A stretch of 64,000 bases of DNA from Verrucomicrobiaceae bacterium (lineage in GTDB: Bacteria; Verrucomicrobiota; Verrucomicrobiia; Verrucomicrobiales; V1-33), in NCBI GenBank assembly GCA_027483175.1, contig JAIXVE010000042.1:29-64028 (forward strand), read 5' to 3'. The notes under the pieces were generated by a model that searched no databases, was not told where the DNA came from, and was given only the letters and a program-made list of their open reading frames with translations. A program made the position numbers and the translations under genes. Shown here piece after piece: positions 21,706-46,614 of this stretch. Position 1 is the stretch's first letter, and each line of letters begins with the position of its first letter.

Positions 21706-22944
21706 TCAGGGGCGCTTGGCGGCGGCGACGATGGGGTCGTAGGCCTTGCGGGAGCGTTCGCGGGTCTCGGGGAGGGCGGTGGCGAGGGCGTCGGCGAGGG
21801 CCTGGCGGTTTTGCCATGCGGACTGGACTCGGGCGAGGCCAGCGCCTGGGGCGAGGAAGTCCTTGATGGAGATGAGGGCGGCGTTCTGGGTGAGTTCCTT
21901 GCCGAGGAGGTCGTTGAGGATGCCTTCGGCTTTGATGCTGTAGCCGATGACGAGGGTGGGGACGCCTGTGGAGAGGCCGGCGATGGCGGCGTGCATGCGT
22001 TCGGCGACGACGAGGTCGCAGCGGGAGATGATGGCTTTGTAGTCGGAGGCGCTGAAGTCGCCGCCGGCGAGACGGACGCGGGGGTCGTGGCCGATGCGGC
22101 GGAGGATTTCGGTGGCGATGACGCGGTCCTCGTTTTTGGCGGAGGTTTCCTGGACGTGGGGGATGATGATGATGTTGGCGTCGAGGGAAGAGCGGAGCCA
22201 TGAGATGACCTCGATCCATGTATCGACGTGGCGTGAGGCGTCGGAGCCCATCCAGTGGCAGATGGCGGAGCTGGTGCTGAGGGCGATGGTGGGGCGGTCC
22301 GGGAGGGCGCGGTGGTGATTGAAGAGGGCGTCGCCTTCGGTGGCATCGGGCTGGGTGAGGAGGAAGGCGGGATCGGCGACGAGGTGGATGCGGTCGTGGG
22401 GGAGCTTGAGGACGTCGCGGAGGTAGTTGAAGGAAGCGGATTCGCGGACGGTGATGGCGCTGGCGTGTTTTGCCAGGTCGGAGAAGGCGGCGGTGTCCGG
22501 GTTGTTATTGAAGGGCCCGATGGACTGGGCGTGGATGATGAAGGGGACGGCGGCGGCGTGGGCGATGCGGAGGGGTTGGAGGTGGGAGAGGAGCGAGCGG
22601 TGGCCGTATTCCGAGCAGAAGACATCGCCACCGCTGGCGACGACGCAGGAAGCGGTGCGGAGTTCTGCGGCGGCGATGGCGGCGTCCTTGTCGAGGGAGG
22701 GGACGACGGAAGTGAGGAGCTTGCGGAGACGGCCGGCGTAGAGCGGGCGGATGGTGTAGTCGTGGATGAAGCGGACGTCTTTGTCAGGGAGTCTGGAGGC
22801 ATCGAAGTCCGGGGCGCGATCGAGGACGGTGAATGTGGCTCCGGGGAGGCGGAGCCGGAGCTGGGCGATGGTGGAGACGACGAGGGCTTCGACCCCGTGG
22901 TTTCTGAAGGAGGTGATGCCTGTGATGACGATTTTCTGGCTCAT
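21706..22944 (-). CDS. Polysaccharide pyruvyl transferase family protein
   Basis: 412 aa. N-terminal KIVITGITSFRNHGVEALVVSTI and C-terminal ERMHAAIAGLSTGVPTLVIGYSIKAEG resemble WcaK/CsaB-type pyruvyl transferases. Last gene of the EPS array. Confidence 0.6.
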   Translation of the reverse strand: MSQKIVITGITSFRNHGVEALVVSTIAQLRLRLPGATFTVLDRAPDFDASRLPDKDVRFIHDYTIRPLYAGRLRKLLTSVVPSLDKDAAIAAAELRTASCVVASGGDVFCSEYGHRSLLSHLQPLRIAHAAAVPFIIHAQSIGPFNNNPDTAAFSDLAKHASAITVRESASFNYLRDVLKLPHDRIHLVADPAFLLTQPDATEGDALFNHHRALPDRPTIALSTSSAICHWMGSDASRHVDTWIEVISWLRSSLDANIIIIPHVQETSAKNEDRVIATEILRRIGHDPRVRLAGGDFSASDYKAIISRCDLVVAERMHAAIAGLSTGVPTLVIGYSIKAEGILNDLLGKELTQNAALISIKDFLAPGAGLARVQSAWQNRQALADALATALPETRERSRKAYDPIVAAAKRP

Positions 22945-24170
22945 GGGGTGGTGGGTGAGGATTTTGAGGGGATGAGGGAGGAGTAGCGGTTAGCGAGACG
23001 AGCGCCGATGGCGGGCCAGCCGAATTGCTGGGTGGCGGTGTCGATGCCGTGCGATTCGAGGGAAGCGCGGAGGGCGGGGTCGTTGAGGGCGCGGGCGATG
23101 GCCTGGGCGAAGGCCGGGGCGTCGTCGGCGAGGAGGATATTGTGATCGTGGATGAGGTTGAGGCCTTGAGCGCCGATGGTGGTGGAGACGACGGGCGTGC
23201 CGATGGCGAGGGATTCGACGATTTTGAGGCGAGTGCCGCCGCCGATGCGGAGGGGGACCATCTGGAGCCACGAGCGGCGATAGTATGGGCGGACATCGGG
23301 GACCCCGCCGGTGACGGTGACGCCGGTGCGTGAGCCGTAGGCCTGGACCTCGGGGAGCGGGTTTTTGCCGACGACGAGGATGCGGACGTTAGGGACGAGC
23401 TGGAGGAGTGCGTCGTGGATGGAGGAGAAGAACCAGCGGAGTGCGTCGACGTTAGGACTGTAGTCCATGGCTCCGCAGAAGATGACGGTGGGGTCCGGGT
23501 CGCGGGGTTCGGGCGCGGAGGCCGGGTGGAAGTAGTCGAGATCGACGCCGTTGGCGACGACCATGACGGGGGCTTTGGGGGTGATGCGGCGGTGGATGAA
23601 GGTTTCGTCGTCGGGGCCGCAGACGATTTCGAGGGCGGTGGACTTGGCGAGGAGACGTTCGTAGCGCCAGAGTTTGGCGTAGCTTTCCCAGCGGAGGAGA
23701 CGGTCGCGGAGGGAGAAGTGGAGTGTTTTGTGTTCCATGAGCTGGAACTGGAGATCGACGCGGCTGCGGTCGACGACGAAGGGAGTGTGGTGGGCGTGCG
23801 GGAGCACGTAGGGCATGAGGACGAGGTCGCAGATGTGGACGAGGTCGTAGCGGCCGGGGGTGAGGAGCTGATTGATGGTGTTAGCGACCTCGGGTTGCTG
23901 CCAGTGCTGGACGTTGCTGGGGAGCGGGTTGAGGAGACGCTGGGGGAAGAGCTTCTGCCATGGCGGGTGGGCGAAGGGGATGAAGGTGACGGAGCGGCAG
24001 AATGCGGAGAAGACGGCGCGTTTTTCGTCGAGGTCCGGGGATGGTTCGGTGAGGGCGACGAAGTCGACCTCGTGGTGAGCGGCGAGGGCCTTGAGGAGGT
24101 GGAACGTGCGTTGGTAGGTGCCGCGGTCGAGCGGCCACGGGGCGTAGGGGTAGAAGACGAGGAGCTTCAT
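22941..24170 (-). CDS. Glycosyltransferase, GT-B fold (GT4-like)
   Basis: MKLLVFYPYAPWPLDRGTYQRTFHLLKALA...; C-terminal ...PLRIGGGTRLKIVESLAIGTPVVSTTIGAQGL is an E-x7-E-type region. ATGA overlaps on both sides. Confidence 0.8.
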   Translation of the reverse strand: MKLLVFYPYAPWPLDRGTYQRTFHLLKALAAHHEVDFVALTEPSPDLDEKRAVFSAFCRSVTFIPFAHPPWQKLFPQRLLNPLPSNVQHWQQPEVANTINQLLTPGRYDLVHICDLVLMPYVLPHAHHTPFVVDRSRVDLQFQLMEHKTLHFSLRDRLLRWESYAKLWRYERLLAKSTALEIVCGPDDETFIHRRITPKAPVMVVANGVDLDYFHPASAPEPRDPDPTVIFCGAMDYSPNVDALRWFFSSIHDALLQLVPNVRILVVGKNPLPEVQAYGSRTGVTVTGGVPDVRPYYRRSWLQMVPLRIGGGTRLKIVESLAIGTPVVSTTIGAQGLNLIHDHNILLADDAPAFAQAIARALNDPALRASLESHGIDTATQQFGWPAIGARLANRYSSLIPSKSSPTTP

Positions 24171-24700
24171 GGGGCTTCGTTGCAGCGCAGGTTCTGTTCG
24201 GAGATGATTCTGGCGGGGATGCCGACGGCGGTGGCGTTAGGGGGGATGTCTTTGGTGACGACGGAGGAGACCCCGATGATGGCGTGGTCGCCGATGGTGA
24301 CTGCGCCGACGGCTTTGGCACCGTCGCCCATGAAGACGTGGGCGCCGAGGGTGGGGCCTTTTTTTGCGCCGTGGGCGAGGACGAGCCGGACATCGGCGTA
24401 GAGGTCGCAATCCGGGCCGATGGAGGAATGGGGAGCGATGATGAGGCCCATGGGGTGGGGGAGGCGGAGGCCTGGGCCGATGGTGGCGAGTTTGGAGACC
24501 TCGATTTTGAAGAACCAGAAGAGGAGTTTGGCGGCGAAGATGGTGGGGACGTGGTGCTGGGCGCACCAGAACTGGAAGCGGATGAGGGCGACGGCGTGGA
24601 TGCTGTTGAGGGAGAGGCAGAGGGCGGCGCGTTTGAGTGGGCCCGCGGGGAGATAGTCCCGGAGGTTGCGGCGGATATCGGCCTTGAGGTTAGGGAACAT
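24167..24700 (-). CDS. Hexapeptide-repeat O-acetyltransferase (serine acetyltransferase/EpsC-like)
   Basis: Left-handed beta-helix repeats IGPGLRLPHPMGLIIAPHSSIGPDCDLYADVRL...VFMGDGAKAVGAVTIGDHAIIGVSSVV. Confidence 0.8.
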   Translation of the reverse strand: MFPNLKADIRRNLRDYLPAGPLKRAALCLSLNSIHAVALIRFQFWCAQHHVPTIFAAKLLFWFFKIEVSKLATIGPGLRLPHPMGLIIAPHSSIGPDCDLYADVRLVLAHGAKKGPTLGAHVFMGDGAKAVGAVTIGDHAIIGVSSVVTKDIPPNATAVGIPARIISEQNLRCNEAP

Positions 24701-24706
24701 GGCGGG

Positions 24707-25837
24707 TCAGTTGAAGCGGGACCAGAGGGATTGGTAGGCGGCGACGGCGGAGGGCCAGTTGGAGACTGGGGCGGCGAGCTGGGAGGAGAGGAATGCCAGG
24801 TGTTCCGGGACGAGATCCGGGGCCCAGAGGAGGAGCGGGAGGGCGTTGAGGAGACCCTCACGCGGGTAGCGGAGGGCGAGGGGCGAGCAGATGCCTTTGG
24901 GGCCGAAGGCGCGGAGACGGACGAGCGGGTTTTTGAGGAGGGACGTTTCCGGGCACTTCGATGACTTGTTAGATGAGTAGGCGAGGGGTGTGGGGAAGGA
25001 GGCGGAGAGACGGCGGGATTCGAGCCATGAGAAGACGGCCCATGCGGTTTGGGAGACTGAGGCGTGGAGGGCGGCGAGTTCGGATAGGGAGGCGGAGGAG
25101 CGGGCCGGGTGGAGTTTGAATTCCGTGCCGGCGGCGTGGTCGGCGCGGATGGCGTCGATGGGGAGGGACGGTTCAGTCAGGGAGAGGAGCCGCTGGTGGC
25201 GTTCGAGACAGGACCAGTGGTAGAGCCCGTGGGCGGCGAGGAGGGCGTCGCCGATGGCGAGTTGGGCCTTGGCGATGTTGCGGCCGGTGAAGTCGGCGTC
25301 GGCGGAGGAGAAGTCGGGTTGCTGGAGCCGGGCGGCGGCGAAGAGGAGGCCCGAGCAGCGGTTCATGAGGAGCCGGGTGGCTTCGTGGAGAGGGATGCGG
25401 GAGCCGTCGGCGAGGTGGGAGCAGGAGGCGAGGATATCGGGTGGGCCGGTGATGACCCGGTGGCCGGCGACGAGGTCGTAGAAGAACATGGAAGGCCCGC
25501 TGTGCTGGAGCGAGGCGAGCGAGAGGATTTTGAATTCGACGTCGATGCCGAGGGAGGCGGAGTGGCGTTGTTCGAGGGCGTGGATGGCGTGGTGGAAGCG
25601 GCGTTCGTTGAGACGGGGTGGGCCGGAGATGAGGATGAAGAATTCGAGATCGTTGTAGGGTGCGTCGCCGTTGGGGGTGGCGAGGACACCGCCTTCGCCG
25701 CGGCCGTAGCCGCCGCCGAGGATGAGGGCCTGGAGGAGGTTAGGGGGGACGATGGCGCTGAGGTCTGCACCGATGGCGGAGCAGGATTGAGCGAGGAGGG
25801 CCTCGAGTTGGGGGCTGCCGTCGCGGGTGAAGGTCAT
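24707..25837 (-). CDS. Hypothetical protein with Pol-beta-superfamily nucleotidyltransferase motif
   Basis: LILGGGYGRGEGGVLATPNGDAPYNDLEFFIL fits G-[GS]-x(9-13)-D-x-[DE] and is followed by a helical region. No closer family recognised. Confidence 0.5.
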   Translation of the reverse strand: MTFTRDGSPQLEALLAQSCSAIGADLSAIVPPNLLQALILGGGYGRGEGGVLATPNGDAPYNDLEFFILISGPPRLNERRFHHAIHALEQRHSASLGIDVEFKILSLASLQHSGPSMFFYDLVAGHRVITGPPDILASCSHLADGSRIPLHEATRLLMNRCSGLLFAAARLQQPDFSSADADFTGRNIAKAQLAIGDALLAAHGLYHWSCLERHQRLLSLTEPSLPIDAIRADHAAGTEFKLHPARSSASLSELAALHASVSQTAWAVFSWLESRRLSASFPTPLAYSSNKSSKCPETSLLKNPLVRLRAFGPKGICSPLALRYPREGLLNALPLLLWAPDLVPEHLAFLSSQLAAPVSNWPSAVAAYQSLWSRFN

Positions 25838-26712
25838 GGTGTGGGGTCGCGTTGGTAGTCGAGCCAGCCCTGGCGGAAGCCGGCGAGTTTACCGGAGCGC
25901 TGGGCGAAGCGGATGCGTGCGGCGGCGGGGAGTTGGCTGAGTTTGTGGTGCTGGCGGAACCAGCGGAGGTCCTTGCGGAGGTCGGCGGCGGTGCCGAGGG
26001 CGACGGTGCGGAGCCATGAGAAGTCGGAGGGTTTGCCCTGATAGGTGGCGGCCATGGCGCGGGCGTCGCCGAAGGCGCGTTTGCGGGCCTGGGCGGGGGT
26101 GTAGTTGTGGCTGTGCATGGCGACGGAATCCGGGACGTAGGCGATTTCGAAGCCCTCCTTGATGCACCAGCGGGTGTATTCGTCGTCTTCTGCGAACTGG
26201 AGGTCCTCGCGGAAGCCGCGGCGCTGCCAGACATCGCGGCGGATGCCGCTGCTGACCATGCTGAAGAAGTGGTCCCAGTTTGCGGATTCGCGGTTAGGGC
26301 CGAAGCAGCGGTCGTAGTCGTGAGCGAAGACGGCGAGACAGTCCGGGCGGGGGATCTGGCGGGAGAAGGCGGCGGCGGTGCGGGGGTTCTGGAGGGCGTC
26401 GAATAGAGGCTGGAGCCAGAGAGTGCCCTGGGGGGTGGCGTCGGCGTTGAGGAAGATGACGGAGTCGGCGGCGGCGAGGCGCATGCCGGTGTTCATGACC
26501 TTGCTGGGGTTGTACTCGTGGGGTTGGATCTGGATGAAGTGGGCTGGGTTGGCGGCTTTGATGAGGTCCTGGGAGCCGTCGGATGAGCCGCTGTCGATGA
26601 CGATGAGTTCCCATGAGGGGAAGGACTGGGCGGCGAGGGCGGGGAGCGTTTCGCGGAGGGCCCATGCCTCGTTGAACGAGCGCATCACGATGCTGGCGAG
26701 CGGCGGGTTCAT
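25834..26712 (-). CDS. Glycosyltransferase family 2
   Basis: ASIVMRSFNEAWALRETLPALAAQSFPSWELIVIDSGSSDGS..., FLNADATP (D-x-D-like) and a QFAEDDEY region. Confidence 0.85.
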   Translation of the reverse strand: MNPPLASIVMRSFNEAWALRETLPALAAQSFPSWELIVIDSGSSDGSQDLIKAANPAHFIQIQPHEYNPSKVMNTGMRLAAADSVIFLNADATPQGTLWLQPLFDALQNPRTAAAFSRQIPRPDCLAVFAHDYDRCFGPNRESANWDHFFSMVSSGIRRDVWQRRGFREDLQFAEDDEYTRWCIKEGFEIAYVPDSVAMHSHNYTPAQARKRAFGDARAMAATYQGKPSDFSWLRTVALGTAADLRKDLRWFRQHHKLSQLPAAARIRFAQRSGKLAGFRQGWLDYQRDPTP

Positions 26713-26724
26713 GGATAGGAAGAG

Positions 26725-28302
26725 TCAGGGTGCGGACGGACGGAAGCGTGCGGGAAGGCGGGAGAGAACCTTGGATTTCTCGGCGGGGAGGAGGGCGATG
26801 GACCAGATGCCGGCGAGGGCGGCGAGGCCGGTGATGGCCATGCCGAGGAGGGAGGGGAGCCATTGCGGGTTGCCGAAGGTCGGGCCGAGGAGGGCGCGGC
26901 AGAGGAGACCGGTGGCGAGCATGGGGATGCAGGCGAGGAGCGGTCGGGCGATGGTGGAGGAGAAGAGGGTGAGCGGGGATGTGTTGACCTCGCGGGCGGC
27001 CCAGCGCCAGAGGAGCCCCCAGCCGAAGAGGATGGTGGGGAGGACGGAGCCAGCGGCGACCCCGATGACGGCGTCGGACTGCCAGCCGCGGTGGACGAGG
27101 AGGAGTGTTAGGGAAACGGAGAAGAGGATATTGAGGGCGGCTTCGGCGAGGCCCTGCCACATGAGACGGCGTTCCTGGCCGCACATCATGAACATTTTTT
27201 TGAAGACGAGGTGAGTGAGGGCGAGGTGGAAGTACCAGAAGAGGAGGATTTCGCCGACGATGAGCGTGGCGAAGGCGGGTTGTTTTTCGCCGGTGAGGAT
27301 GCGGACGAGGAGGTCGAGGTAGAGAGCGCCGCCGGTGTAGAGAGGTGCGGCGACGAGGACGGTGAGGCGGAGCCCCTTGCGGAACATTTCGTGGAGGGCG
27401 TCGCGGCGGCCGCCGGCGTGGAGGAAGGCGGCGGCTGGGGAGAGGGCGTCGGAGATCTGTTTGGTGATGATGCCGAACATTTCGCCGGCTTTGCCGCCGG
27501 CCTGGTAGAGCGTGACGGCGGGGAGGCCGACGAGGGCACCGGCGACGACCTGATCGGTTTTGTTGCGGAGGAGATTGCTGATCATGTTGAGCCACGCGAA
27601 GAGCGAGAACTTGCCGGTGGAGAAGAGTTCGCTGCGGCTGAAGAGGGAGGGGCGGAGACGAACATCGGGCATGGCGCGGAGGGCGGCGAAGCCAGCGAGG
27701 ATGTCGGGGCCGAGGACGCAGGCGAGGGCGATGGCGAAGACGGCGAAGAGCCCCCAATTGAAGTGGAGGGCGAGGGCGAGGAGGACCGCATTGGCGACGA
27801 GGCCGAGCATGGCGATGCGGTTGGCGGTTTTGAGCTGCTGAAGACCGCGGAGGACCTCGGGGAAGATGCCGAGAGGGAAGCCGAGGGCCATGCCTGCGAA
27901 GAAGAGGACGGTGACCGGGCGGTAGAGTTGGATTTTGTCAGGGGCGACCCCGAGCCAGTGCATGAGCGGGTCGGCGAGGGCCCAGCCGGCGAGCCCGATG
28001 AGGGTAGCGGCGGCGAGGTAGAAGAAGAAGATGGTGCTGAGGGCGCGGCTGAGACGGTCCCAGTCGCGCTTGGCGAGACCTTCGGCGACGCGTTTCTGGG
28101 CGGCGTAGCCGAAGCCGAAGTCGAGGAGGATGCCGTAGCCGAAGACACTCCAGAGGAGGGACCAGAAGCCGAAGTCATCGCGGCTGAGGCCCTGATAGAG
28201 CATGCGGAACGTGACGAGGCCGAGGACGATGCGGAGGATGGTGCGGCCGTAGTTGGAGAGGGCCCCGCTCCATGCGGCTTTTTTGACGTCGTCGGTGTTC
28301 AT
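26725..28302 (-). CDS. wzx: Wzx-type oligosaccharide flippase (MOP superfamily polysaccharide biosynthesis protein)
   Basis: Track ORF (to 28590) trimmed to ATG 28302, which forms an ATGA overlap with the upstream GT stop. It is a multi-TM protein beginning MNTDDVKKAAWSGALSNYGRTILRIVLGLVTFRML... with about 12-14 hydrophobic segments. Confidence 0.75.
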   Translation of the reverse strand: MNTDDVKKAAWSGALSNYGRTILRIVLGLVTFRMLYQGLSRDDFGFWSLLWSVFGYGILLDFGFGYAAQKRVAEGLAKRDWDRLSRALSTIFFFYLAAATLIGLAGWALADPLMHWLGVAPDKIQLYRPVTVLFFAGMALGFPLGIFPEVLRGLQQLKTANRIAMLGLVANAVLLALALHFNWGLFAVFAIALACVLGPDILAGFAALRAMPDVRLRPSLFSRSELFSTGKFSLFAWLNMISNLLRNKTDQVVAGALVGLPAVTLYQAGGKAGEMFGIITKQISDALSPAAAFLHAGGRRDALHEMFRKGLRLTVLVAAPLYTGGALYLDLLVRILTGEKQPAFATLIVGEILLFWYFHLALTHLVFKKMFMMCGQERRLMWQGLAEAALNILFSVSLTLLLVHRGWQSDAVIGVAAGSVLPTILFGWGLLWRWAAREVNTSPLTLFSSTIARPLLACIPMLATGLLCRALLGPTFGNPQWLPSLLGMAITGLAALAGIWSIALLPAEKSKVLSRLPARFRPSAP

Positions 28303-39400: not shown

Positions 39401-39780
39401 ATGGCGAAGTCTGGTTGGGCGAGGCCGAGTTTTTCGACTTCTCTGGGGTCAGCGAGCCATGGGGAGGCGAGGAAGACGGTGAGGTCGTCCTGGGGCATGA
39501 GCTGGCCGCGGAGGAGAGTGCCGCTGGAGACGGCGCAGAGGAGGACGAGGAGGGAGGGGTTGGCGCGGAAGAAGGAGTCGGAGAGGGTGCCGGCTGGGCG
39601 TTTGAGTTCGAAGAGGTCGGGGAGGGAACGGCCTGGGGTGGCGTCGGGGCAGATTTTGTGGAGGCTTGGGCCGATGGCGACGAGGCGGAGGTTCCGGTCC
39701 CACGCGAGGTAGAACGGGAAGGCCTGTTCGAGTTGGGCTGAGGAGAGGCCCGGTGGGTTGGCGGGCGCGGAGGGGTTCAT
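36430..39780 (-). CDS. Hybrid sensor histidine kinase: HNOBA-like + PAS + GAF + HisKA/HATPase + pseudo-receiver + receiver + HPt
   Basis: N-terminal [25 protein letters not shown] resembles the sGC H-NOX-associated domain. H-box [18 protein letters not shown] boxes LGNAVKFT and DSGIGI...GGSGLGLAI. Canonical REC ([11 protein letters not shown]...[12 protein letters not shown]...SKP). HPt ([12 protein letters not shown]). Confidence 0.9.
37658..37670 (-). repeat. 13-nt homopolymeric C tract (G13 on + strand) inside the hybrid kinase CDS
   Basis: Counted directly: ...ctgactGGGGGGGGGGGGGtgtctg... It encodes T704-PPPP in the linker between the HATPase and the first receiver-like domain. The next longest G/C runs I saw are 7 nt. 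Confidence 0.95.
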
Positions 39781-40337
39781 GCTGGGGCGTCGCTGTTCCA
39801 GCGGACTTCGAAGACATCGTGGTCTGCGCCGGCGTCTTTTCTGGCGATGATGGTGGCAGTGCAGGGGGTTTCGTAGAGTTTGGCGAGGCCCTGGAGGATG
39901 CCTGAGACGAAGGCGGTGAGGCCAGGGCGGTGGGTCATATAGTGGAGGTGGAGACTATCGTCGGTGATATCGGAGCAGGTGAAGCGCGGGGGTTCGAGCT
40001 TCGGGTAGATCATGGCGATTCTGGTGTGGAAGTTGGGGAGGTTGATGAGGAATTCCTTGAAGGTGCGGCCGCCGGATTTCATGAGAGGGCCGTAGCTTGG
40101 GGCGGCGACTTTGAGGACCCAGTGTTCGCCGAAGGCGGAGAGGACGGTTTCTGCGGGGAGGCCGAGGATTTCGACGGCGGCGCCGACGAGGCGGTAGGTG
40201 ATGTCGTCTGGGTAGCCTTCGTTGCTGATGAAGACATCGATATCGATGCCTGCTTTGGCTTTGATGGCTTCCCATTTGTCTTCGCCGAAGTTGCTGACAA
40301 CGAGGTCTTCGACGGCTTTGTTGACGAGTCCGTACAT
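39777..40337 (-). CDS. hnoX: H-NOX (heme nitric oxide/oxygen binding) sensor protein
   Basis: [30 protein letters not shown]... Proximal-His context [23 protein letters not shown]. Heme-propionate motif [10 protein letters not shown] (Y-x-T-x-R variant of YxSxR). Close resemblance to Nostoc H-NOX and the sGC beta1 N-terminus. ATGA overlap with the kinase. Confidence 0.9.
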
Positions 40338-40446
40338 GGTGGTGGGTTGTGGAAGTGGTTGGAGATGAGGAGGAAGCGGAGAGGCTGGAAAGCGAGGGCC
40401 CCGGTGAGGAGTTATAGTAAGGGGGGGCCTGGTGCCAAGAATTGAT

Positions 40447-42345
40447 TCATAAATCTGTGGTGTGGTGGAGGAGGGCTGGGAAGGAGATGAGATTCGGGTC
40501 GCGGGGGAGGATCTCGGAGATGCCGAGGGATTTGAGGTGGATGATTTGAGCTGGGTCGAGGCCTGAGTCGACGAGGGCGATTCTGGAGTGGGGGAAGGAG
40601 GCGGTGAGGGAGGAGGCGAAGGCGTCCGGGTGATCTGAGGAGCTGTCGAGGTCAGCGATGACGAGGGAGTGTGCTGGGGGGGTGGTGGCGGTGGGGGATG
40701 AGGGGTTTTGGGTGGTGACGAGGGCGCCTGATTTTTCGAGGCGGCGCTGCATGAGGGTGCGGAGGAGACGGTCGTTGCAGAGGAGGAGGACGTCAGGCTG
40801 GGAATGGGGAGGCGGGGATTCGGCTGGGGGTGGGGATGGTGGGGGAGGGGATGGGGTGAGGGATGGGGTGAGGGATGGGGCTGGGGTTTGGATCGGGAGA
40901 GTGAAGTGGAAGGTGCTGCCGTGGCCTGGGGAGGAGTCGACGAGGATTTCGCTGAGCATGGCGTTGACGATACGCTGGCTGATGGCGAGGCCGAGGCCTG
41001 TGCCGCCGAATTTGCGGGTGGTGGAGGAGTCGCCCTGGGAGAACGTCTGGAAGAGGCGCTCGCGTTGTTCGTCTGTGATGCCGATGCCCGAGTCTTCGAT
41101 GGCGAAGCGGATGGCCGGGTGGCCGTCTGGGGTGGAGGCGGAGGTGAGGGAGAGGGAGACGTGGCCAGAGCGGGTGAATTTGACGGCGTTGCTGACGAGG
41201 TTGATGAGGACCTGGCGGAGTCTGGTGGGGTCTGAGAGGATGATTGGGGGGATGTTTGGGTCGATGGATTTTTCGAGGGCGAGGCCTTTTTCTGCGGCTT
41301 TGGGGAGGAAGAGACTGATGATGTCGCGGATGACCGGTTCGAGGGGGACGGGTTTGGATTCGAGGGAGAGGGAGCCTGCTTCGATTTTGGAGAAGTCGAG
41401 GATGTCGTTGAGGATGGCGAGGAGGCTTTCGCCGGAGGCGTGGATGGTTTCGACGTAGTCGCGCTGGGTGGGGTCGAGGCGGGTGGTGAGGAGGAGTTCG
41501 GTCATGCCGATGACCCCGTTCATGGGGGTACGGATTTCGTGGCTCATGGTGGCGAGGAAGTCGCTTTTGGCGCGGTCGGCGGCTCTGGCTTCTTCGGTGG
41601 CCTTGATGAGGACGGCGATGCTCGAGCTGAGTTTGCGGTGATAGCTCCAGACGAGGACGCCGGCGAGGAGTGCCATGGAGAGGGCACCGAGGCCGATGGT
41701 GATGGAGTTGCGGTGGATGTCGTCGACGTGGTGTTCGAAGTCGGCGAGTTCCATGTCGAGGCCGACGATAGCGATGACCTTGCCGGAGGCGTCTTTGATG
41801 GGGGCGAAGCCGGTTTGGAAGGTGCCCCATGCGTCTTTCCATGGTTTTGGGGTGACGGTGGGGATGCCTGTGGTGAAGGCTTCGAAGAGCTGAGGGGGAG
41901 CGCCTGGGAAGGGCTGCATGATGTGGGCTTTATCGTCGACGCCGTCGTGGTCGGAGTCGCCTTCAGCGGCGGTGTCGAGGATGAAGTGGGGTGCGCCATT
42001 GAGGAGGATGGCGGTGTAGACGTAGCGGAATTTTTCGGGGCCTTCGCAGGCGGCTTTGGCGGCGTCGAGTTCTTTGAGGGCGAGGAGGTAGGGTTCGGAT
42101 AGTTCCTGGGAGCGGGAGGTGAATGAGAGGTGGAGAGCTGGGTCGACGGCGAAGGAGCAGGCGATGGCGGAGCGGCGGATGGCGGAGCGGAGGTCTTCGA
42201 GGTCTTCGGCTTCGTCGTGGACGTGGAAGTTGGCGAGGACGATGAGGGTGGCGACGAGGAGGGCGAGGCCTGCGACGGCGGCGCTGACGAGCGGCTTCAT
42301 GCCGGGGGGCCGCAGTTGCTGAGTGAGATCTGGAGAGGAGGGCAT
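40447..42345 (-). CDS. Membrane sensor histidine kinase with periplasmic Cache-like domain and C-terminal receiver-like region
   Basis: TM segment [22 protein letters not shown]. Cache-like ...[29 protein letters not shown]-box [20 protein letters not shown]. HATPase NAVKFT and DSGIGI...GGTGLGLAI. Pro-rich linker, then a REC-like tail. The start may be Met16 (42300). Confidence 0.85.
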
Positions 42346-42376: not shown

Positions 42377-43447
42377 TCAGGGGGTGATGCCGAGGTTGAG
42401 GCCGACTGGGCTGGCGGCTCCTGCGGCGCGCGCTCCTTCGTTGGCGGCGATGGTGCGGGCGAAGGTGGAGATGACGAGGTCTGCGTAGGCGGCGAGGGAG
42501 TTGGGAGAGGATTCGGGGATGAAGACGAGGTCTTTGGGTTTGAGGAGGACGTCGGGGGATTTGCCGGAGAGGATGGTTTCTGCGTTAACGACGGCGATTT
42601 CGGGGTCGCGGAGGGAACCTCTGACGATGGCGACCTTGGTTAGTTTAGCGCCTTTGATGAAGCCGCGGCAGTGGGCGATGGCGGTGAGGAGGGTGAGTTG
42701 GTCTTTGAAGGCGACGGATCTGGGCTGGTAGACGGCGCCCATGACATAGACCTCGCTGCCGAGGGCGGAGGGGAGGTAGATGAAGTCGTCCGGCTGGAGG
42801 TAGATATTCTGAGAGGTGTCGCCTTTGCGGATGAGGCTGTTGAAGTCGATGGGGACGAGCTGGCCTTTGCGGATGAGGAAGCTGTGGTGGAGGTCGGCGA
42901 GTTCTTCGGTGGATCCTGACATGCGGGAGGTGAAGAGACCGCCGGCTTTGCTGATGGCTTCGAGGACGGTCATGGGTTGGGCGAGTTCGTAGAGGCCGGG
43001 GGTGCTGATGCGGCCGAGGACCCAGACGCGGCGGCTGTGGACTTCGCGGAGGGTGATGCTGACCTGGGGGGACTGGACGAACTGGGAGAGGCCGTGTTCG
43101 AGGAGTTTGGTGGTATCTGCGAGGGTGAGGCCCCAGACCTGCTGGCCCTGGAGGAGGTGGAAGTAGATGCGGCCGTCGGGGCCGACGAAGGTGGTTTGGG
43201 GGCCATCGCCGCTGCCGAGGAGTTCGATGTCGATGACGTCGCCTGGGCCGAGCCGGAATTCCGAGGGATCCGGGGAGAGGAGTGCTGGGTTGAGGGAGTG
43301 GTTGAGGGAGGTTTTGACGACGTCAGCGGAGGTGGCGGTTGCGGTGGTGTGCGCGTCGAAGCGTCTGGCCTGCTGGCTGGTGCCGGAGCAGCTGGCGAGG
43401 GTGGCTGCGGCGAGGAGCGGGAGGAGGCGGGAGAGGCGAGGCGTCAT
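42377..43447 (-). CDS. Outer-membrane polysaccharide export lipoprotein (OPX, Wza-like: Poly_export + SLBB)
   Basis: Track ORF trimmed to ATG 43447 (ATGA overlap with the upstream stop). Lipobox [26 protein letters not shown]...[15 protein letters not shown]-type Poly_export motif. SLBB-like [12 protein letters not shown]. Confidence 0.8.
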
Positions 43448-46400
43448 CGGGCTGGCTGGCTGGGGTCCGGGAGGATGGGGCCGATGTTTTCGCCGGTCCA
43501 TGTGGCGGCGCCGGTCTGGACGAAGGCGCGCATGGCGAGGGCGAGGATTTCGTTGGCGCGCTGCCATGGTTTTTCGTGGACGTAGATGAGGTCGCGGGGC
43601 TGGAGGAGGACGTCCTTCTGTTTACCGGCGAGGATGGCGGCGGCGTCGAGGGTGATGATGTCGGGTTGTTTTTTGTCAGGCGGGGTGCGGACGATGAGGA
43701 TTTTCTTTTTCCATGCGGTGCGGGAGAAGCCGCCGCGGACGGTGATGGCTCCGAGAGCGGAGAGGCCTTCGGTGACGCCGGTGTGGCCTGGGGAGCCGAC
43801 GGCGCCGAGGATGTAGACCTCGTTGACGATATTGCTAGGGAAGTAGATGTAATCGCCTGGCTGGAGCTGGATATTCTGGGAGAGGTCGCCTTCGAAGAAG
43901 AGTTTGGAGAAGTTGACGGGGAGTTTTCTGCCATCGCGGACGATGAAGGCGCGGCGCATGTCGGCGATTTCGACGGTATTCTGTTCGAGGAGGCCAGTGG
44001 CGATGCCGCGGGCGCGTGCGGCGGCCTCGAGGAGGGACATGGGTCTGTCGAGGGTGTAGGCGCCGCGGTCGATGACGGTGCCGAGGAGGAAGTATTTTTT
44101 GCTGCGGAAGGCTCCTGGGGTGACGATGATCTGGGCGTTGGTGATGTAGTTGCGGAGGGCGGTGGAGAGGCCGGAGCGGAGTTCGTCGATGGTGAGGCCT
44201 GCGGCTTTGAAGCCGTGGACCTGGAGGTAGTTGATGGTGCCGTCCGGGTTGATGGGGACCTGGGTGCGGGTGAATTCCTTGCGGCCGAAGACCTGGAGGT
44301 TGACGAGGTCACCAGGGCCGAGGGTGAGACGTTCCTGCCATGGGGCGAGGGGGGTGGGAGGTTTTGGCTGGGGGAGCGGGGTGAAGGGTTTGGAGGGGTC
44401 TGGGGTGAGAGGGGGTAGAGGATCGCCTGCTGGAGGGAGGGAATTGTCAGGAGCTGGGGCCTGGGATGGGGAGACGGGAGGGAGGTCGCCGTGGATGGCG
44501 GGAGGCGGGGCGAGCGGTTCGAGTTCCGGGGGGTGATCCTGGGCGTCGGTGAGGGAAGTTAGGGAGAGGGAGGCCAGGGTGAGGGAGAGGCCGAATTTTG
44601 CGAGGTCTGGGAGTTTCTGGAAGATGGGAGGGATGCGGTTGAGGAGAGCGGCGGAGAGGTGGATGCCGGAGGTTTTGAGGGTATCGATGATAGGGGAGAC
44701 GTCTTCGCGGAGGAGTTTGCCGCTTTGGGAGATCCAGAGGAGGGCGGGGAGGGATTCTGCGAGGAGGAGTGCGTCGAGGTTGGAGGCTGGGGGGAGTTCG
44801 ACGAGGATGACGAGGCCATGTTCAGCGGACCATGAGGCGAGGGCGGAGCGCCAGAGGTTTCTGGAGTCGTGGTTCCAGAGCCATGAGGAGGGGACGTTGA
44901 TTTCGAGGGCGGCGGGGCTGGCTGAGCGGAGGTGAGAGAGGATGCGGTCGGGGGAGTTGAGGGCGTCGGCGATGGGGACGACGGAGTTGGAGGGGCTGGC
45001 GTGGTCGCCGTGGGAGATGGCGAGGACCTTGTGGCCGCGGTCGAGGGCGGCGCGGGCGAGGAGGTGGAGCCATGTGGATTTGCCTTCATTGCTGGAGGCG
45101 GAGAGGAGGCCAGCGACGAAGGCGGCGTCTGTGGGAGCGGGGATGGATCTGGTGAGGGTGGCCCATGTGGTGAAGCGCCAGAGGGCGAGGGCGGCTGGGT
45201 CCATGTCTGCCTGGTCTGGGAGGGAGGCGATGACAGGGGCGCGGGTGAGGCGGCGGAGGTCGGAGGGGGAGACGATGGAGTCGCTGGTGGCGGCGGAGAT
45301 GGCGCGGTAAGCGATGATGGCGGCGGCGGCGAGGAAGGCTCCGATGAAGGAGACGATGAGGAGTTTGAGGGAGCGGCTGCTGATGCTGACGGCGTCTGGG
45401 GAGGCTGGGGCGAAGAGCCGGTAGTAGCCGAGGGCGCGTTCCGAGTAGAGCTGGGCTTCGCGGAGACGGCCGCCGAGGAGGTTGCGGGTTTCTTCGAGTG
45501 CGGCGACGCGGCCGCGGAAGCGGGAGAGGGCGAGTTGCTGATCCGGGATGGAGTCGAGTTTCGTTTTCAGGTTCGCGCGGAAGGCGGTGAGGCTTTCGAT
45601 TTCCTTTTTGAGGGATTCCTTGGAGGAGCGGAGGGAGAGGATGTCGAGGTAGAGACTATTGGCGACGGTGTTGCCGGTGGACTGGAAGGAGGCGGTGGGG
45701 TCGGTGGGGGCGTTGGAGCGGCGTTTCTTTTCGAGGGCGGTGACGCGGGCCTGCTGTTCGACGACGAGGGGGTATTCTGCGGTGTACTGGGTGAGGAGTT
45801 CGGCGAGACGGCTGCGGGCTTCGTTGAGCTGCTGGGTGGCGGGGTCCTGTTTGGCGAGTTCTGCTTCGGTGCGGGCGATGCGGTCGTCGATGGAATCGAA
45901 TTCGATTCTGGTGGATTCGATGCGGAGGTCGAGTTCGGAGAGTTGTTTGAGGGCGGCTTCGGTTTCTTTGTCTGGGTCTGCGAGGCCGCTTTTTCTGGAG
46001 AAGGCCATGAGTTCCTTCTGGACGGTGGTGAGTTCCTGTTCGGTGCGTTCCATTTGTGAGGAGAGGAACGAGAGGAGTTCTTTGGCTTCCTGGGCCTGGA
46101 GGTCGCTGGTGAGGGAGGCGACGTTTTCAGCGTATTTGTTAAGGCCCTGGGCAGCGAAGGCGGGGGAGACGTCGGTGGTCCATGCGACGGTGATGAGGTC
46201 GGTATTTTTTTCCGGGCGGATGACGATTTCCTGCTGGAAGGCTGAGGCGGAGATTTTTGGGGAGAGGGAGGCGGCGGTTTTTTCCATGAGCGGGCCGCTG
46301 TGCATCATGGCGGAGACGGTGGCGGCGTTGAACTGGCGTGGGCGGAAGGATTCGCCGAGTTCGGAGGCCGGGAAGGTGGTGGTCATCTCGCGGCGGACGA

Positions 46401-46614
46401 GTTGGACCTGGGCGGTGTATTTGGTGGTGAAGCGCCAGTGGCCGAGGGCGAAGGCGGTGGCGGCGCCGAGGAGAGCGGCGATGAGGATCCAGGGCCAGCC
46501 TTTGGCGATGTGGATGGCGACGCGGAGGATGTCGAAGGGGAGGAGGGATTTGACTGGGGCAGGGGGAGCCTGGGGATCAGTGGGCGGCCGTGGGAGCGGG
46601 GTGGGAGCGATCAC
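43444..46614 (-). CDS. Fusion protein: Wzz/PCP chain-length-determinant domain + degenerate BY-kinase-like P-loop domain + C-terminal OPX (Poly_export/SLBB) domain
   Basis: N-terminal Wzz-like segment with a TM (WPWILIAALLGAATAFALG), a long coiled-coil and a second TM (LLIVSFIGAFLAAAAIIAY). Walker-A-like SASSNEGKST. Walker-B-like LVILVELPP. Internal signal-like FGLSLTLASLSLTSLTDA, then a Pro-rich linker. OPX motifs LGPGDLVNLQVFG...INPDGTINYLQV and NEVYILGAVGSPG. Confidence 0.75.
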   Translation of the reverse strand: MIAPTPLPRPPTDPQAPPAPVKSLLPFDILRVAIHIAKGWPWILIAALLGAATAFALGHWRFTTKYTAQVQLVRREMTTTFPASELGESFRPRQFNAATVSAMMHSGPLMEKTAASLSPKISASAFQQEIVIRPEKNTDLITVAWTTDVSPAFAAQGLNKYAENVASLTSDLQAQEAKELLSFLSSQMERTEQELTTVQKELMAFSRKSGLADPDKETEAALKQLSELDLRIESTRIEFDSIDDRIARTEAELAKQDPATQQLNEARSRLAELLTQYTAEYPLVVEQQARVTALEKKRRSNAPTDPTASFQSTGNTVANSLYLDILSLRSSKESLKKEIESLTAFRANLKTKLDSIPDQQLALSRFRGRVAALEETRNLLGGRLREAQLYSERALGYYRLFAPASPDAVSISSRSLKLLIVSFIGAFLAAAAIIAYRAISAATSDSIVSPSDLRRLTRAPVIASLPDQADMDPAALALWRFTTWATLTRSIPAPTDAAFVAGLLSASSNEGKSTWLHLLARAALDRGHKVLAISHGDHASPSNSVVPIADALNSPDRILSHLRSASPAALEINVPSSWLWNHDSRNLWRSALASWSAEHGLVILVELPPASNLDALLLAESLPALLWISQSGKLLREDVSPIIDTLKTSGIHLSAALLNRIPPIFQKLPDLAKFGLSLTLASLSLTSLTDAQDHPPELEPLAPPPAIHGDLPPVSPSQAPAPDNSLPPAGDPLPPLTPDPSKPFTPLPQPKPPTPLAPWQERLTLGPGDLVNLQVFGRKEFTRTQVPINPDGTINYLQVHGFKAAGLTIDELRSGLSTALRNYITNAQIIVTPGAFRSKKYFLLGTVIDRGAYTLDRPMSLLEAAARARGIATGLLEQNTVEIADMRRAFIVRDGRKLPVNFSKLFFEGDLSQNIQLQPGDYIYFPSNIVNEVYILGAVGSPGHTGVTEGLSALGAITVRGGFSRTAWKKKILIVRTPPDKKQPDIITLDAAAILAGKQKDVLLQPRDLIYVHEKPWQRANEILALAMRAFVQTGAATWTGENIGPILPDPSQPAR

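Follow-up and report, generated by a model that had tools for sequence, protein, structure and literature searches.

A conserved Verrucomicrobiales polysaccharide gene cluster with two putative built-in signalling layers

What does a polysaccharide locus make, and how is it controlled, when sensor and switch genes lie among its glycosyltransferase genes? We addressed this question in a window of 64,000 nucleotides, the whole stretch of DNA analysed, from a freshwater Verrucomicrobiaceae MAG. With a probability of roughly 0.65, we read its central 19 genes as a conserved Verrucomicrobiales cluster that directs synthesis of a lipid-linked, Wzx-type heteropolysaccharide (surface or secreted) and has two built-in signalling layers, one consisting of H-NOX and its kinase and the other of a STAS switch acting via gene 08.

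The 19 open reading frames (ORFs), all co-oriented on the minus strand, fill positions 21706–46614. Each bears a coding signature (GC3 of ~0.8–0.88, well above GC2), and 17 of the 19 have Pfam or NCBIfam support; the two without a family match, genes 16 and 08, were settled by structure prediction. This bears out the 19-gene cluster of a preliminary description, whose domain calls also proved mostly correct by profile search, the exceptions being a Cache domain and a weak GAF. The 16-gene run that starts with hnoX (40337) and ends with the pyruvyl transferase gene (21706) is connected by eight 4-bp ATGA overlaps (H-NOX/HK, HK/GT4c, REC/AlkP, AlkP/GT4b, GT4b/flippase, GT2/gene 16, AT/GT4a and GT4a/PyrT) and a single overlap of 7 bp at GT4c/PGT; the six other junctions are gaps of 4, 28, 19, 32, 12 and 6 nt. 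The recomputed junctions agree with the single 7-bp overlap and the gaps of at most 32 nt described before; the nine ATGA overlaps assigned to this run do occur in the string, but the ninth lies upstream of the run, at PCP-OPX/OPX. Three overlaps rest on internal ATG starts that we chose for the flippase (28302), AlkP (30739) and OPX (43447) genes, and these starts agree with domain boundaries. The other upstream gaps are those between OPX and HK632 (31 nt) and between HK632 and hnoX (109 nt). ATGA overlaps join regulators to structural genes, and the two kinds are interleaved as had been described. Downstream of the cluster lies a convergent aminotransferase gene (20422–21597, plus strand), with a weak terminator-like hairpin at 21645–21624, past gene 19. 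Upstream, a divergent PAS/GAF kinase and NarL regulator pair (46728–50668, plus strand) is followed by chorismate synthase.

The initiating enzyme is gene 07 (34476–35234), a small monotopic phosphoglycosyl transferase (PGT) of 252 aa (Bac_transf E = 1e-64) in which the catalytic dyad D148-E149 is present. It matches WbaP (E = 3.5e-45) and PglC (2e-26) and scores 276 bits against TIGR03025, whose cutoff is 296 bits. The lipid-linked repeat unit begun by this PglC/WbaP-type enzyme would be lengthened by three GT4 glycosyltransferases, namely GT4c (gene 06, 35228–36433, 401 aa; Glycos_transf_1 E = 8e-35), GT4b (gene 13, 28299–29573, 424 aa) and GT4a (gene 18, 22941–24170, 409 aa; best match TIGR03087 'stp1', 225 bits versus a 317-bit cutoff), and by one GT2 enzyme (gene 15, 25834–26712, 292 aa), with genes 13 and 15 assigned by profile search. 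The five glycosyltransferases counted previously are thus four, plus one PGT. A polysaccharide pyruvyl transferase at the end of the string (gene 19, 21706–22944, 412 aa; PS_pyruv_trans E = 7e-38), a CysE/EpsC-like hexapeptide O-acetyltransferase found by profile search (gene 17, 24167–24700, 177 aa), gene 16 and gene 12 would modify the repeat unit or provide substituents. The family matches of genes 17 and 19 make the pyruvyl and acetyl decoration predicted earlier a fair expectation. Gene 12 (29570–30739, 389 aa) encodes an alkaline-phosphatase-superfamily (AlkP) enzyme (PF01663; Phosphodiest E = 5e-15) that is 66–97% identical in relatives; a TM scan found neither a TM segment nor a signal peptide, and we read it as cytoplasmic. 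Gene 16 (24707–25837, 376 aa) has no Pfam or NCBIfam match. Its predicted structure (pLDDT 93.7) combines a Pol-beta-fold nucleotidyltransferase with a helical domain and matches ANT(4') and HalB in Foldseek (E ~1e-3). Its motifs GGYGRGEGG and D63-L-E65 are invariant, and it has 2958 homologues at E ≤ 0.001; among the 120 listed, all are named 'hypothetical protein' except one evident mis-annotation.

Transport of the glycan over the inner membrane would fall to a Wzx/MOP-family flippase (gene 14, 26725–28302, 525 aa from ATG 28302; MatE, Polysacc_synt_3) with ~12 TM segments by TM scan, and export to a PCP-OPX fusion and a second OPX lipoprotein. The fusion (gene 01, 43444–46614, 1056 aa, GTG start) consists of TM1 (~39–57), a periplasmic coiled region, TM2 (~418–436), a cytoplasmic segment that resembles a P-loop, a proline-rich linker and a Wza-like export domain of the PES+SLBB type (Pfam: Poly_export and SLBB_2, residues 761–1012). 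Against the PDB it matches Wza (E = 5e-21 over 732–1025) and, weakly, Wzc, PslE and Etk; residues 124–468 score 75 bits, below cutoff, against the TIGR03007 chain-length determinant. The fusion is kept in the related genomes G006, G013, G017 and G038. Gene 02 (42377–43447, 356 aa), whose ATG overlaps the gene 01 stop (ATGA), encodes a lipoprotein (lipobox LASC) with Poly_export and two SLBB domains, scoring 116 bits against TIGR03027, below its 180-bit cutoff.

The putative first signalling layer begins with gene 04 (39777–40337), a stand-alone H-NOX haem sensor of 186 aa (PF07700 E = 1e-47) in which the proximal His104 and the Y133-x-T135-x-R137 motif are present and invariant across five orthologues. 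It matches Nostoc Alr2278 (E = 2e-56) and sGC beta1 (1.6e-30). Gene 05 (36430–39780), which shares ATGA overlaps with hnoX on its upstream side and GT4c on its downstream side, encodes a soluble hybrid histidine kinase of 1116 aa (Pfam; BarA/TorS-like in NCBIfam) with the domain order HNOBA-PAS-GAF-HisKA(H483)-HATPase-pseudoREC-REC(D907)-Hpt(H1048) and complete His-Asp-His relay motifs. Ligand bound to this Nostoc/sGC-type H-NOX, most likely NO, would alter the output of the HNOBA kinase, to which the sensor is presumably translationally coupled. The relay may then hand phosphate to the stand-alone receiver (REC) of gene 11, to the NarL-type regulator, or to both. Gene 11 (30736–31107, 123 aa), identified with receiver models and overlapping the AlkP gene by ATGA, retains E8-D9, D52, T83 and K104; it figured among five input modules in the preliminary description, yet REC is a relay and no sensor. 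Of the divergent pair, the 1087-aa kinase has GAF/PAS x3/GAF and HisKA_3 domains, and the regulator (226 aa) is of the NarL/LuxR type. A further membrane histidine kinase (gene 03, HK632, 40447–42345, 632 aa; HisKA with H269, HATPase_c) carries two TM segments that enclose an unassigned periplasmic domain of ~175 aa, followed by HisKA, HATPase and a degenerate receiver-like tail. It had been called a Cache kinase, but profile search gave no Cache match even at E ≤ 1.

The second layer centers on genes 08–10. Gene 09 (32920–33219) encodes a single-domain STAS protein of 99 aa (STAS E = 1e-12; TIGR00377 above cutoff) with a phosphorylatable Ser52 in a DSSGLG motif, as aligned to TM1442 and SpoIIAA. 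Gene 10 (31140–32900) joins an RsbW-type Ser kinase, a GAF-like middle and a PP2C phosphatase in one 586-aa chain (HATPase_c_2, SpoIIE), with the N-box, the G-box and every PP2C metal-binding Asp intact. Its profile matches include Rv1364c (4e-17), SiaA (1e-12), RsbW (2e-8) and 3p01 (3.5e-5); the GAF domain reported earlier is visible only weakly, as this last match and a Pfam E of 1e-3. The STAS protein and this single kinase/phosphatase polypeptide would form a sigma-factor-less partner switch.

Gene 08 (33248–34471, 407 aa) lies between the true PGT and the STAS gene. Its AlphaFold model (pLDDT 80, only 53–76 over residues 160–250, leaving the N-terminal half and beta-helix at moderate confidence) predicts a GMPPA/eIF2B-like nucleotidyltransferase with a beta-helix, a TM or re-entrant helix and a PglC-like domain, and Foldseek returns GMPPA/B, VTC1, eIF2B, PglC (TMt 0.61–0.64) and a WbaP-like fold. 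The hhalign comparison with gene 07 (probability 36%, E = 3.7e-4) is weak taken alone. The nucleotidyltransferase half lacks the GxGTRL signature, and the PglC-like domain has Ala317-Arg318 where the catalytic Asp-Glu is expected; family alignments place x-Arg at this position throughout, with the KFRSM segment absent. The protein earlier labeled 'NTase-like' thus has that fold, but its pseudo-PGT half and the loss of catalytic motifs had been missed. In Rubritalea marina, gene 08 is fused to a DSSGLG-bearing STAS domain within the corresponding cluster, which also holds a WecG-GT-STAS fusion. Because gene 08 is a double pseudoenzyme that is STAS-fused in this species, the partner switch probably acts on glycan initiation, the first sugar-adding step. 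We propose gene 08, which is membrane-anchored, as its target or adaptor: the phosphorylation state of STAS would control initiation post-translationally through gene 08, by protein–protein contacts that may link STAS, gene 08 and the PGT.

The cluster is a conserved Verrucomicrobiales system and no one-off, a point that the preliminary description had missed. About 21 verrucomicrobial H-NOX loci have cluster genes downstream, in the shared order H-NOX, hybrid kinase, (GT4), PGT, gene 08, STAS, RsbW-GAF-PP2C, REC, AlkP and glycosyltransferases; H-NOX loci of Bacteroidota, Planctomycetota, Gemmatimonadota and cyanobacteria have the H-NOX and kinase pair only. The cluster is collinear in two congeners and another genus of the family, and rearranged yet intact in another family. 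The 4-bp overlap is kept at HK/GT4c in 9 of 14 related loci, at H-NOX/HK in 21 of 28 and at REC/AlkP in 9 of 14. Congener G013 lacks genes 08–10 yet retains H-NOX, kinase, PGT, REC, AlkP and glycosyltransferases, so the switch is dispensable, and REC can occur without it. In Rubritalea the cluster core stands without H-NOX or kinase, and three genomes of the order carry H-NOX and gene 08 on separate contigs; the two layers are therefore separable.

Other readings of the control scheme deserve weight. O2 binding or a redox-sensing role is known for some bacterial H-NOX proteins, and MAG titles place the host in oxic and anoxic lake water. Sensing of O2, CO or redox state by gene 04 is nevertheless improbable, considering that its nearest relatives, Nostoc Alr2278 and animal sGC beta1, do not bind O2 and that the distal-pocket Tyr position of O2-binders aligns with Val144 here and Met in Nostoc. 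Somewhat less improbable, though still unlikely, is a mainly transcriptional scheme, compatible with our main explanation, in which the H-NOX-regulated kinase acts through a NarL-type regulator on cluster promoters and the STAS/RsbW-PP2C switch works, SiaABCD-like, on an unlinked sigma factor or diguanylate cyclase. NarL-family regulators do adjoin the cluster in G000, G006, G013, Haloferula and G038 (immediately upstream of hnoX in Haloferula, divergent here), the terminal Hpt domain of gene 05 is fit to feed several receivers, and neither SiaA nor Rv1364c, which gene 10 resembles, has a glycosyltransferase output. However, profile search found no sigma, anti-sigma or GGDEF gene in the 64-kb window, the divergent kinase/NarL pair is kept within the genus only (G006 and G013 have it beside the cluster, G017 and G038 do not), and Rubritalea has STAS fusions with both gene 08 and a WecG glycosyltransferase. 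The cluster genes are presumably co-transcribed, but against a single 25-kb transcript we lean slightly toward at least two units, PCP-OPX/OPX/HK632 and hnoX-to-pyruvyl transferase, perhaps with more internal promoters, which would make the 'supercluster' a set of neighbouring operons; this contests the single-transcript claim only and is compatible with the main explanation. The 109-nt spacer before hnoX (40338–40446, minus strand), the largest gap in the cluster, may contain a promoter, judging from its TTGGCA-16 nt-TATAAC and from a motif that reads TGGCAC-N5-CTGC in two congeners and TGGCAC-N5-CCCC here; the TGGCAC-type pattern is not enriched across the window, and rpoN is present in the genome. 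Moreover, hnoX comes first in its unit in G038 and Haloferula, with export genes elsewhere or on the opposite strand, and gaps of 19–32 nt flank STAS, gene 10 and REC. Conversely, tight overlaps are conserved in related loci, and consensus scans, which are weak evidence when the genome is verrucomicrobial and the strand poor in G, found no sigma-70-like promoter inside 21000–40500 and terminator-like hairpins below chance (8 observed versus 11.7 expected).

The nature of the product raises a further alternative, namely that the glycan is not released as EPS but forms a capsule, serves as an O-antigen-like part of the envelope or decorates PEP-CTERM or other surface proteins, with a Wzy, ligase or exosortase encoded elsewhere. 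The TM scan found the flippase as the sole multi-TM protein and no Wzy-type polymerase in the cluster, an absence overlooked before, and the five Wzy_C matches in the genome all lie on other contigs; the pathway as encoded in the cluster is thus incomplete. Wzy_C/O-antigen-ligase-family genes and five exosortases occur elsewhere in the genome, one pair sitting together on contig C239, and the window contains a 3489-aa surface protein and a PEP-CTERM protein whose VPEP-TM-RRRR tail, at 137–229, is real, as noticed earlier. The best NCBIfam matches are to XrtA-system families, though below cutoff. We regard a non-released glycan as doubtful, since a PCP together with two OPX modules typifies the export of high-molecular-weight CPS/EPS and no ligase or exosortase lies within the 64 kb, as the preliminary description had said for exosortase. 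Its suggestion of an exosortase-type lifestyle agrees with the tail and the genomic exosortases, but the cluster falls short of the curated thresholds for families associated with XrtA/PEP-CTERM. Capsule and released EPS are not separable from sequence alone.

The proposed control scheme, H-NOX and STAS layers over a polysaccharide pathway, is a variant of those described in Vibrio fischeri and Anabaena. Regulators within an EPS locus, pointed out earlier, have a precedent in principle in the V. fischeri syp locus, which contains SypA, SypE, SypF and SypG (PMC3610818, PMC4517449), with SypA and SypE acting mainly downstream of transcription (PMC3610818). NO, HnoX and HahK act as inputs to syp (PMC12369376); syp with HnoX/HahK is the closest whole-system analogue. 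The putative switch on glycan initiation resembles Anabaena All4160/HenR/Alr3423 (2026), where phosphorylation of the STAS protein exerts direct control over a Bac_transf enzyme (PMC13555669). The full layout is present in cultured Haloferula sargassicola, which opens the system to study in culturable relatives.

The minus strand carries 19 co-oriented open reading frames, arranged end to end between positions 21706 and 46614 and numbered here from the upstream PCP-OPX fusion (gene 01) to the pyruvyl transferase (gene 19). All 19 have a GC3 of ~0.8–0.88, far above GC2, which is a coding signature, and 17 have Pfam or NCBIfam support. The 16 genes from the H-NOX gene hnoX (39777–40337) to the pyruvyl transferase gene (21706–22944) are connected by 15 junctions. 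Eight junctions are 4-bp ATGA overlaps (H-NOX/hybrid kinase, hybrid kinase/GT4c, REC/AlkP, AlkP/GT4b, GT4b/flippase, GT2/gene 16, acetyltransferase/GT4a, and GT4a/pyruvyl transferase), the GT4c/PGT junction is the single 7-bp overlap of the stretch, and the remaining six are gaps of 4, 28, 19, 32, 12, and 6 nt. The preliminary description had counted nine ATGA overlaps in this stretch; the 19-gene string and its tight junctions stand, but the ninth overlap lies upstream, between the PCP-OPX and OPX genes. Upstream of hnoX, 31 nt separate the OPX gene (gene 02) from the kinase gene HK632 (gene 03), and 109 nt separate HK632 from hnoX. The string is bounded downstream by a convergent aminotransferase gene and upstream by a divergent PAS/GAF kinase and NarL regulator, followed by chorismate synthase. 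We conclude that the cluster is genuine and conserved, with clear boundaries.

The 109-nt gap before hnoX is probably the start of a second transcription unit, because hnoX heads a unit in distant relatives and the gap contains a promoter-like TTGGCA-16-TATAAC. Consensus scans, which are uninformative in such base composition, detected no sigma-70-like promoter within the 16 genes, and terminator-like hairpins did not exceed chance level. We also considered a sigma-54 promoter at this position. The equivalents of the spacer (40338–40446) in two congeners, at loci L018 and L019, carry a sigma-54-like TGGCAC-N5-CTGC, whereas the sequence here reads TGGCAC-N5-CCCC, a change consistent with loss of G on the minus strand, and rpoN is found in the genome (contig C238). 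With the element degenerate here and the -24/-12 pattern not enriched within the window, we retain this candidate as a side observation only.

The string encodes most of the machinery for polysaccharide assembly and export. Gene 01 is a 1056-aa fusion in which two transmembrane segments enclose a periplasmic coiled region (PCP topology) and are followed by a P-loop-like cytoplasmic segment, a Pro-rich linker, and a C-terminal Wza-like PES and SLBB module (Wza match, E = 5e-21). It matches Wzc, PslE, and Etk weakly, and its assignment as a PCP is based on sub-threshold matches and topology only. Gene 02 is a second OPX protein with a lipoprotein signal. Genes 01 and 02 represent the PCP co-polymerase and OPX export protein of a Wzx/Wzy-dependent cluster, and the initiating polyprenyl-phosphate phosphoglycosyl transferase is represented by gene 07, a small monotopic PGT (Bac_transf, E = 1e-64; WbaP, E = 3.5e-45) that keeps the catalytic DE dyad. 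Gene 14 is a MOP-family (Wzx) flippase with MatE and Polysacc_synt_3 matches and ~12 transmembrane segments. Three GT4 and one GT2 glycosyltransferases are accompanied by a CysE/EpsC-like hexapeptide acetyltransferase, the pyruvyl transferase, and a cytoplasmic AlkP-superfamily enzyme (PF01663). Gene 16 has no family match; its model (pLDDT 93.7) has the Pol-beta-fold nucleotidyltransferases ANT(4') and HalB as sole structural relatives. The GGYGRGEGG and DLE motifs of gene 16 are invariant, and its family comprises 2958 homologs at E ≤ 0.001; among the 120 homologs listed, the source name is always 'hypothetical protein', bar one evident mis-annotation. For the Wzy polymerase, no multi-transmembrane protein other than the flippase is present among the 19 genes, and the genome's five Wzy_C (PF04932) matches are all on contigs other than the cluster's. 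Because Wzy proteins are diverse, a distant Wzy elsewhere in the genome may serve the cluster.

The preliminary description had pointed to an exosortase-type lifestyle from a PEP-CTERM protein at the window start, while noting that no exosortase gene was present. Both observations are borne out. The PEP-CTERM protein, whose gene is truncated by the window start, ends in a canonical VPEP-TM-RRRR sorting tail, VPEPAGTVALMLPALFGVGVTRRRRAGRVG, directly before the stop codon (137–229, plus strand), and PF09721 has no match on C93, the contig of the cluster. A genome search returned five PF09721 matches, on C133, C295, C276, C3, and C239. The best NCBIfam names for the cluster proteins are XrtA/PEP-CTERM EPS families, all below cutoff; no protein reaches the curated thresholds for the glycosyltransferases TIGR03087/03088/04063 (225 vs 317 bits for TIGR03087), the export family TIGR03027 (116 vs 180), the chain-length family TIGR03007 (75 vs 279), or TIGR03013 (165 vs 393). 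With every family score sub-cutoff and no exosortase within 64 kb, membership of the XrtA/PEP-CTERM EPS system was rejected. The C239 exosortase is located ~5 kb from a Wzy_C gene, a pairing that suggests a second, exosortase-linked polysaccharide locus.

Gene 04 encodes an H-NOX protein (PF07700, E = 1e-47), with Nostoc Alr2278 (E = 2e-56) and animal sGC beta1 as its nearest relatives. It contains the proximal His104 and the heme-propionate motif Y133-x-T135-x-R137, a Y-x-S-x-R motif with a Ser-to-Thr replacement, both invariant in orthologs. The hnoX gene overlaps the adjacent kinase gene by 4 bp here and in 21 of 28 related loci. The kinase (gene 05) contains a complete relay in the order HNOBA-PAS-GAF-HisKA(H483)-HATPase-pseudoREC-REC-Hpt(H1048), where HNOBA is the domain found after H-NOX in soluble guanylate cyclase. 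From these sequence features, heme binding and an NO-dependent change of kinase activity are predicted for the pair. The STAS protein (gene 09) keeps a phosphorylatable Ser52 in a DSSGLG motif. Gene 10 consists of an RsbW-type kinase with intact N-box and G-box, a weakly GAF-like middle region, and a PP2C phosphatase that retains every metal-binding Asp; among solved structures, the fused phosphatase-kinase Rv1364c is the best match, ahead of SiaA and RsbW. Gene 11 encodes a free-standing, intact receiver and ends in a stop codon that overlaps the AlkP start. HK632 exposes a ~175-aa periplasmic domain that had been described as a Cache sensor, an assignment we abandoned since no Pfam Cache model matches it even at E ≤ 1. 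No sigma factor is encoded in the window.

The H-NOX/kinase pair resembles the bacterial H-NOX/HnoK-type NO pairs of Shewanella, Vibrio, and Nostoc, the last formed by Alr2278 and a neighboring kinase. Here too, a histidine kinase gene is immediately preceded and overlapped by the gene for a free-standing H-NOX protein, the proximal His and propionate-binding motif are retained, and the kinase carries HNOBA. H-NOX signaling affects biofilm, mostly via c-di-GMP enzymes or distant regulons, on which the known H-NOX/kinase pairs act. Here, hnoX and the kinase gene head a string of polysaccharide biosynthesis genes that extends to the pyruvyl transferase, a position in which none of the known pairs has been described. 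Our literature search retrieved no account of a polysaccharide cluster headed by H-NOX, nor any of a verrucomicrobial H-NOX.

Gene 08, located between the PGT and STAS genes, has marginal NTP_transferase and Hexapep scores. Its alignment-based model (pLDDT 80) matches two fold classes. The N-terminal half consists of a nucleotidyltransferase domain and a left-handed beta-helix, as in GMPPA/GMPPB, VTC1, ST0452, and eIF2B (gamma/epsilon), and the C-terminal half resembles PglC (TM-score 0.61–0.64 relative to PglC, E ~1e-5) and WbaP. The closest point of reference for the first half is GMPPA (PDB 7d72), the catalytically inactive regulatory paralog of GDP-mannose pyrophosphorylase; the likeness to GMPPA and eIF2B is in fold only, at 9–17% identity. 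Like regulatory pseudo-nucleotidyltransferases, gene 08 lacks the catalytic glycine-rich signature (GxGTRL). Comparison of its tail with the PGT by hhalign and MAFFT aligned the 21-residue PGT core with ARWPSLWRIVTGHFAWTGNPP in the PglC-like half, where A317-R318 replace D148-E149 of the PGT. Across the family this position reads x-Arg, without variation in the Arg, and no member has the KFRSM segment. We read gene 08 as a putative double pseudoenzyme from its model and motifs. Two features set it apart from GMPPA and eIF2B, namely a membrane anchor and a fused pseudo-PGT domain that resembles PglC.

A natural fusion suggests what the STAS protein acts on. The gene 08 homolog of Rubritalea marina carries a STAS domain at its C-terminus, DSSGLG motif included, within a core cluster of PGT, gene 08-STAS, RsbW-PP2C, REC, Phosphodiest, GT4, a gene 16 homolog, acetyltransferase, and glycosyltransferases; H-NOX and the kinase are absent from this locus. 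Because of this Rosetta-stone fusion, the strongest pointer available, the switch would target the initiation machinery rather than a sigma factor. A WecG/TagA-family glycosyltransferase-STAS fusion (3017–4105 of L102, the R. marina locus on KB899258.1), divergent from the PGT/gene 08-STAS operon, is a second enzyme-linked STAS of the locus.

We give roughly one chance in four to the reading that gene 08 defines a new class of STAS-gated regulatory subunit of polysaccharide initiation that pairs with the true PGT, with a complete gas-signal path encoded in the cluster. Gene 08 would be a membrane-anchored GMPPA-like pseudo-nucleotidyltransferase and pseudo-PGT, partnering the true monotopic PGT, with the phosphorylation of the STAS protein as the gate. 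The proposed post-translational path to the committed glycan step would run from NO to H-NOX, the hybrid kinase, REC, RsbW-GAF-PP2C, STAS, gene 08, and finally the PGT; the ligand of H-NOX, the phosphate route, and all protein contacts are those that we infer. A further role for the GMPPA-like half of gene 08 might be to sense the NDP-sugar pool.

The nearest named records come from freshwater Verrucomicrobiaceae/Verrucomicrobiales MAGs. H-NOX is present in four of 40 relatives, each copy inside an equivalent cluster. The cluster is collinear in two congeners, one of which (G013) lacks genes 08–10; another genus of the family keeps all 19 genes in collinear order, and in another family the genes form two divergent units, one headed by hnoX. 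Among 80 H-NOX loci from GTDB species representatives, ~21 verrucomicrobial loci have cluster genes downstream of hnoX and the kinase, including cultured Haloferula sargassicola NBRC 104335, where the full layout was recovered at ~19–43 kb of contig NZ_BAABRI010000006.1; the loci from Bacteroidota, Planctomycetota, Gemmatimonadota, Chloroflexota, and cyanobacteria contain H-NOX and kinase only. Tight junctions are kept in genomes of ordinary composition, with 4-bp overlaps at HK/GT4c in 9 of 14 related loci, at PGT/gene 08 in 12 of 23, and at REC/AlkP in 9 of 14. Although our choice of start codons favors small gaps, an overlap of exactly 4 bp is a specific result. Of 151 sampled genomes of the order, 15 carry the full-length gene 08 family and 15 carry H-NOX; seven have both, three of them on different contigs. 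This distribution points to a core that is an accessory locus, with the H-NOX head as a separable addition. Recent horizontal arrival of the cluster is not supported, since in GC content and in its extreme strand-specific codon usage it is like the remainder of the genome.

In G013 (contig C19, loci L012/L019; ~3.2–4.3 kb of L012), the PGT is directly followed by a shortened REC and AlkP, with genes 08–10 missing, and by gene content this congener is a natural switch-less variant. As G013 and R. marina show, each of the two regulatory layers is dispensable on its own. These genomes offer natural controls, a congener without genes 08–10 and Rubritalea without H-NOX and kinase, and the culturable carriers H. 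sargassicola NBRC 104335 and R. marina make the system testable.

The closest architectural parallel is syp, an 18-gene polysaccharide locus of Vibrio fischeri that also encodes SypA (STAS), SypE (kinase-REC-phosphatase), SypF, and SypG (PMC3610818, PMC4517449). SypE acts on SypA largely downstream of transcription (PMC3610818), and NO feeds into syp via HnoX/HahK, encoded at an unlinked locus (PMC12369376). Both clusters place regulator genes among the structural genes for polysaccharide assembly and export, including a single-domain STAS protein (gene 09), one polypeptide that has an RsbW-type Ser kinase at its N-terminus and a PP2C phosphatase at its C-terminus (gene 10), and a hybrid histidine kinase. 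In both, the STAS output is other than a sigma factor, and an H-NOX protein is the NO sensor feeding the pathway, as predicted here. The differences are substantial, beyond the two phyla involved. The hnoX and kinase genes lie inside the cluster here, with the kinase overlapping a glycosyltransferase gene, but are unlinked in V. fischeri; the middle domain of gene 10 is GAF-like, whereas SypE has a receiver, which here is gene 11, coupled to the AlkP-family enzyme; and the window contains neither a SypG-like sigma-54 activator nor an AAA+ enhancer-binding protein. Compared by published domain architectures, there is no gene-for-gene correspondence to syp, so the cluster is not a one-to-one copy of that characterized locus. 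No target has been assigned to SypA, whereas the Rubritalea fusion points to gene 08 as the STAS target here.

In Anabaena sp. PCC 7120, All4160 (STAS-Bac_transf), HenR (REC-SpoIIE), and Alr3423 (Ser kinase) act as a direct switch on a sugar transferase (Harada, Matsuoka and Ehira 2026, PMC13555669). The same study describes fusions of STAS to sugar transferases as rare outside cyanobacteria. The proposed module shares reversible STAS Ser phosphorylation by an RsbW-type kinase and a SpoIIE/PP2C phosphatase, both present with intact motifs in gene 10, and would likewise act directly on the polysaccharide-initiating sugar-transferase machinery without a sigma factor; in each, a receiver domain ties the phosphatase side to two-component input. 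The Anabaena STAS is fused to a catalytically competent Bac_transf, whereas STAS here is a separate gene (fused in R. marina), linked to a Bac_transf-like protein in which the catalytic dyad is lost and a GMPPA-like domain is present, with the active PGT encoded by a separate neighboring gene. Kinase and phosphatase form one polypeptide here but separate proteins in Anabaena (Alr3423 and HenR). By this analogy, the cluster would combine syp-type embedded regulation with Anabaena-type direct STAS control, and both the operonic H-NOX/kinase head and the pseudo-nucleotidyltransferase/pseudo-PGT STAS partner appear undescribed. Sensor, relay, phospho-switch, and biosynthetic enzymes occur together in one conserved gene string, with the Rubritalea fusion singling out a candidate target at the step of initiation. 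Should this be confirmed, the system would extend the enzyme-level partner switching of cyanobacteria to another phylum, with a pseudoenzyme adaptor added, and would explain how abundant freshwater and marine Verrucomicrobia couple surface-polysaccharide production to NO.

The window shows an extreme strand asymmetry that is independent of gene orientation, as does the whole genome. The plus strand contains 44% G and 20% C, with a GC skew of +0.31 to +0.47, and the median absolute skew of the genome is 0.35 over 285 contigs. Leu codons follow the DNA strand, with 482 CTC versus 3 CTG in minus-strand genes and 94 CTG versus 1 CTC in plus-strand genes. Gene-strand bias was rejected as the cause, given that genes on both strands follow the DNA strand and the G-rich strand holds ~47% of long-ORF coding bases. 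Among relatives, extreme skew (~0.41) is confined to the congeners; it is 0.22 at the sister-genus locus L020 and below 0.15 in most related loci, with a few at ~0.25. The leaders of genes on the C-rich minus strand are almost G-free, for example CCCACCACCATG (40338–40350) and CTCCACTCCCATG (31108–31120), and therefore show no Shine-Dalgarno-like GGAGG. Translation in the cluster may initiate by coupling or by an SD-independent route.

Elsewhere in the window, the plus strand encodes a 3489-aa secreted protein (250–10719) with 16 SdrD_B repeats as well as CarboxypepD_reg and GEVED domains; the ORF that follows it (10817–11833, 338 aa) is unannotated. Three consecutive small genes are found at 12415–14518 (plus strand), two with N-terminal methylation motifs of the type IV pilin/T2SS pseudopilin kind and one with weak T2SS-J similarity.
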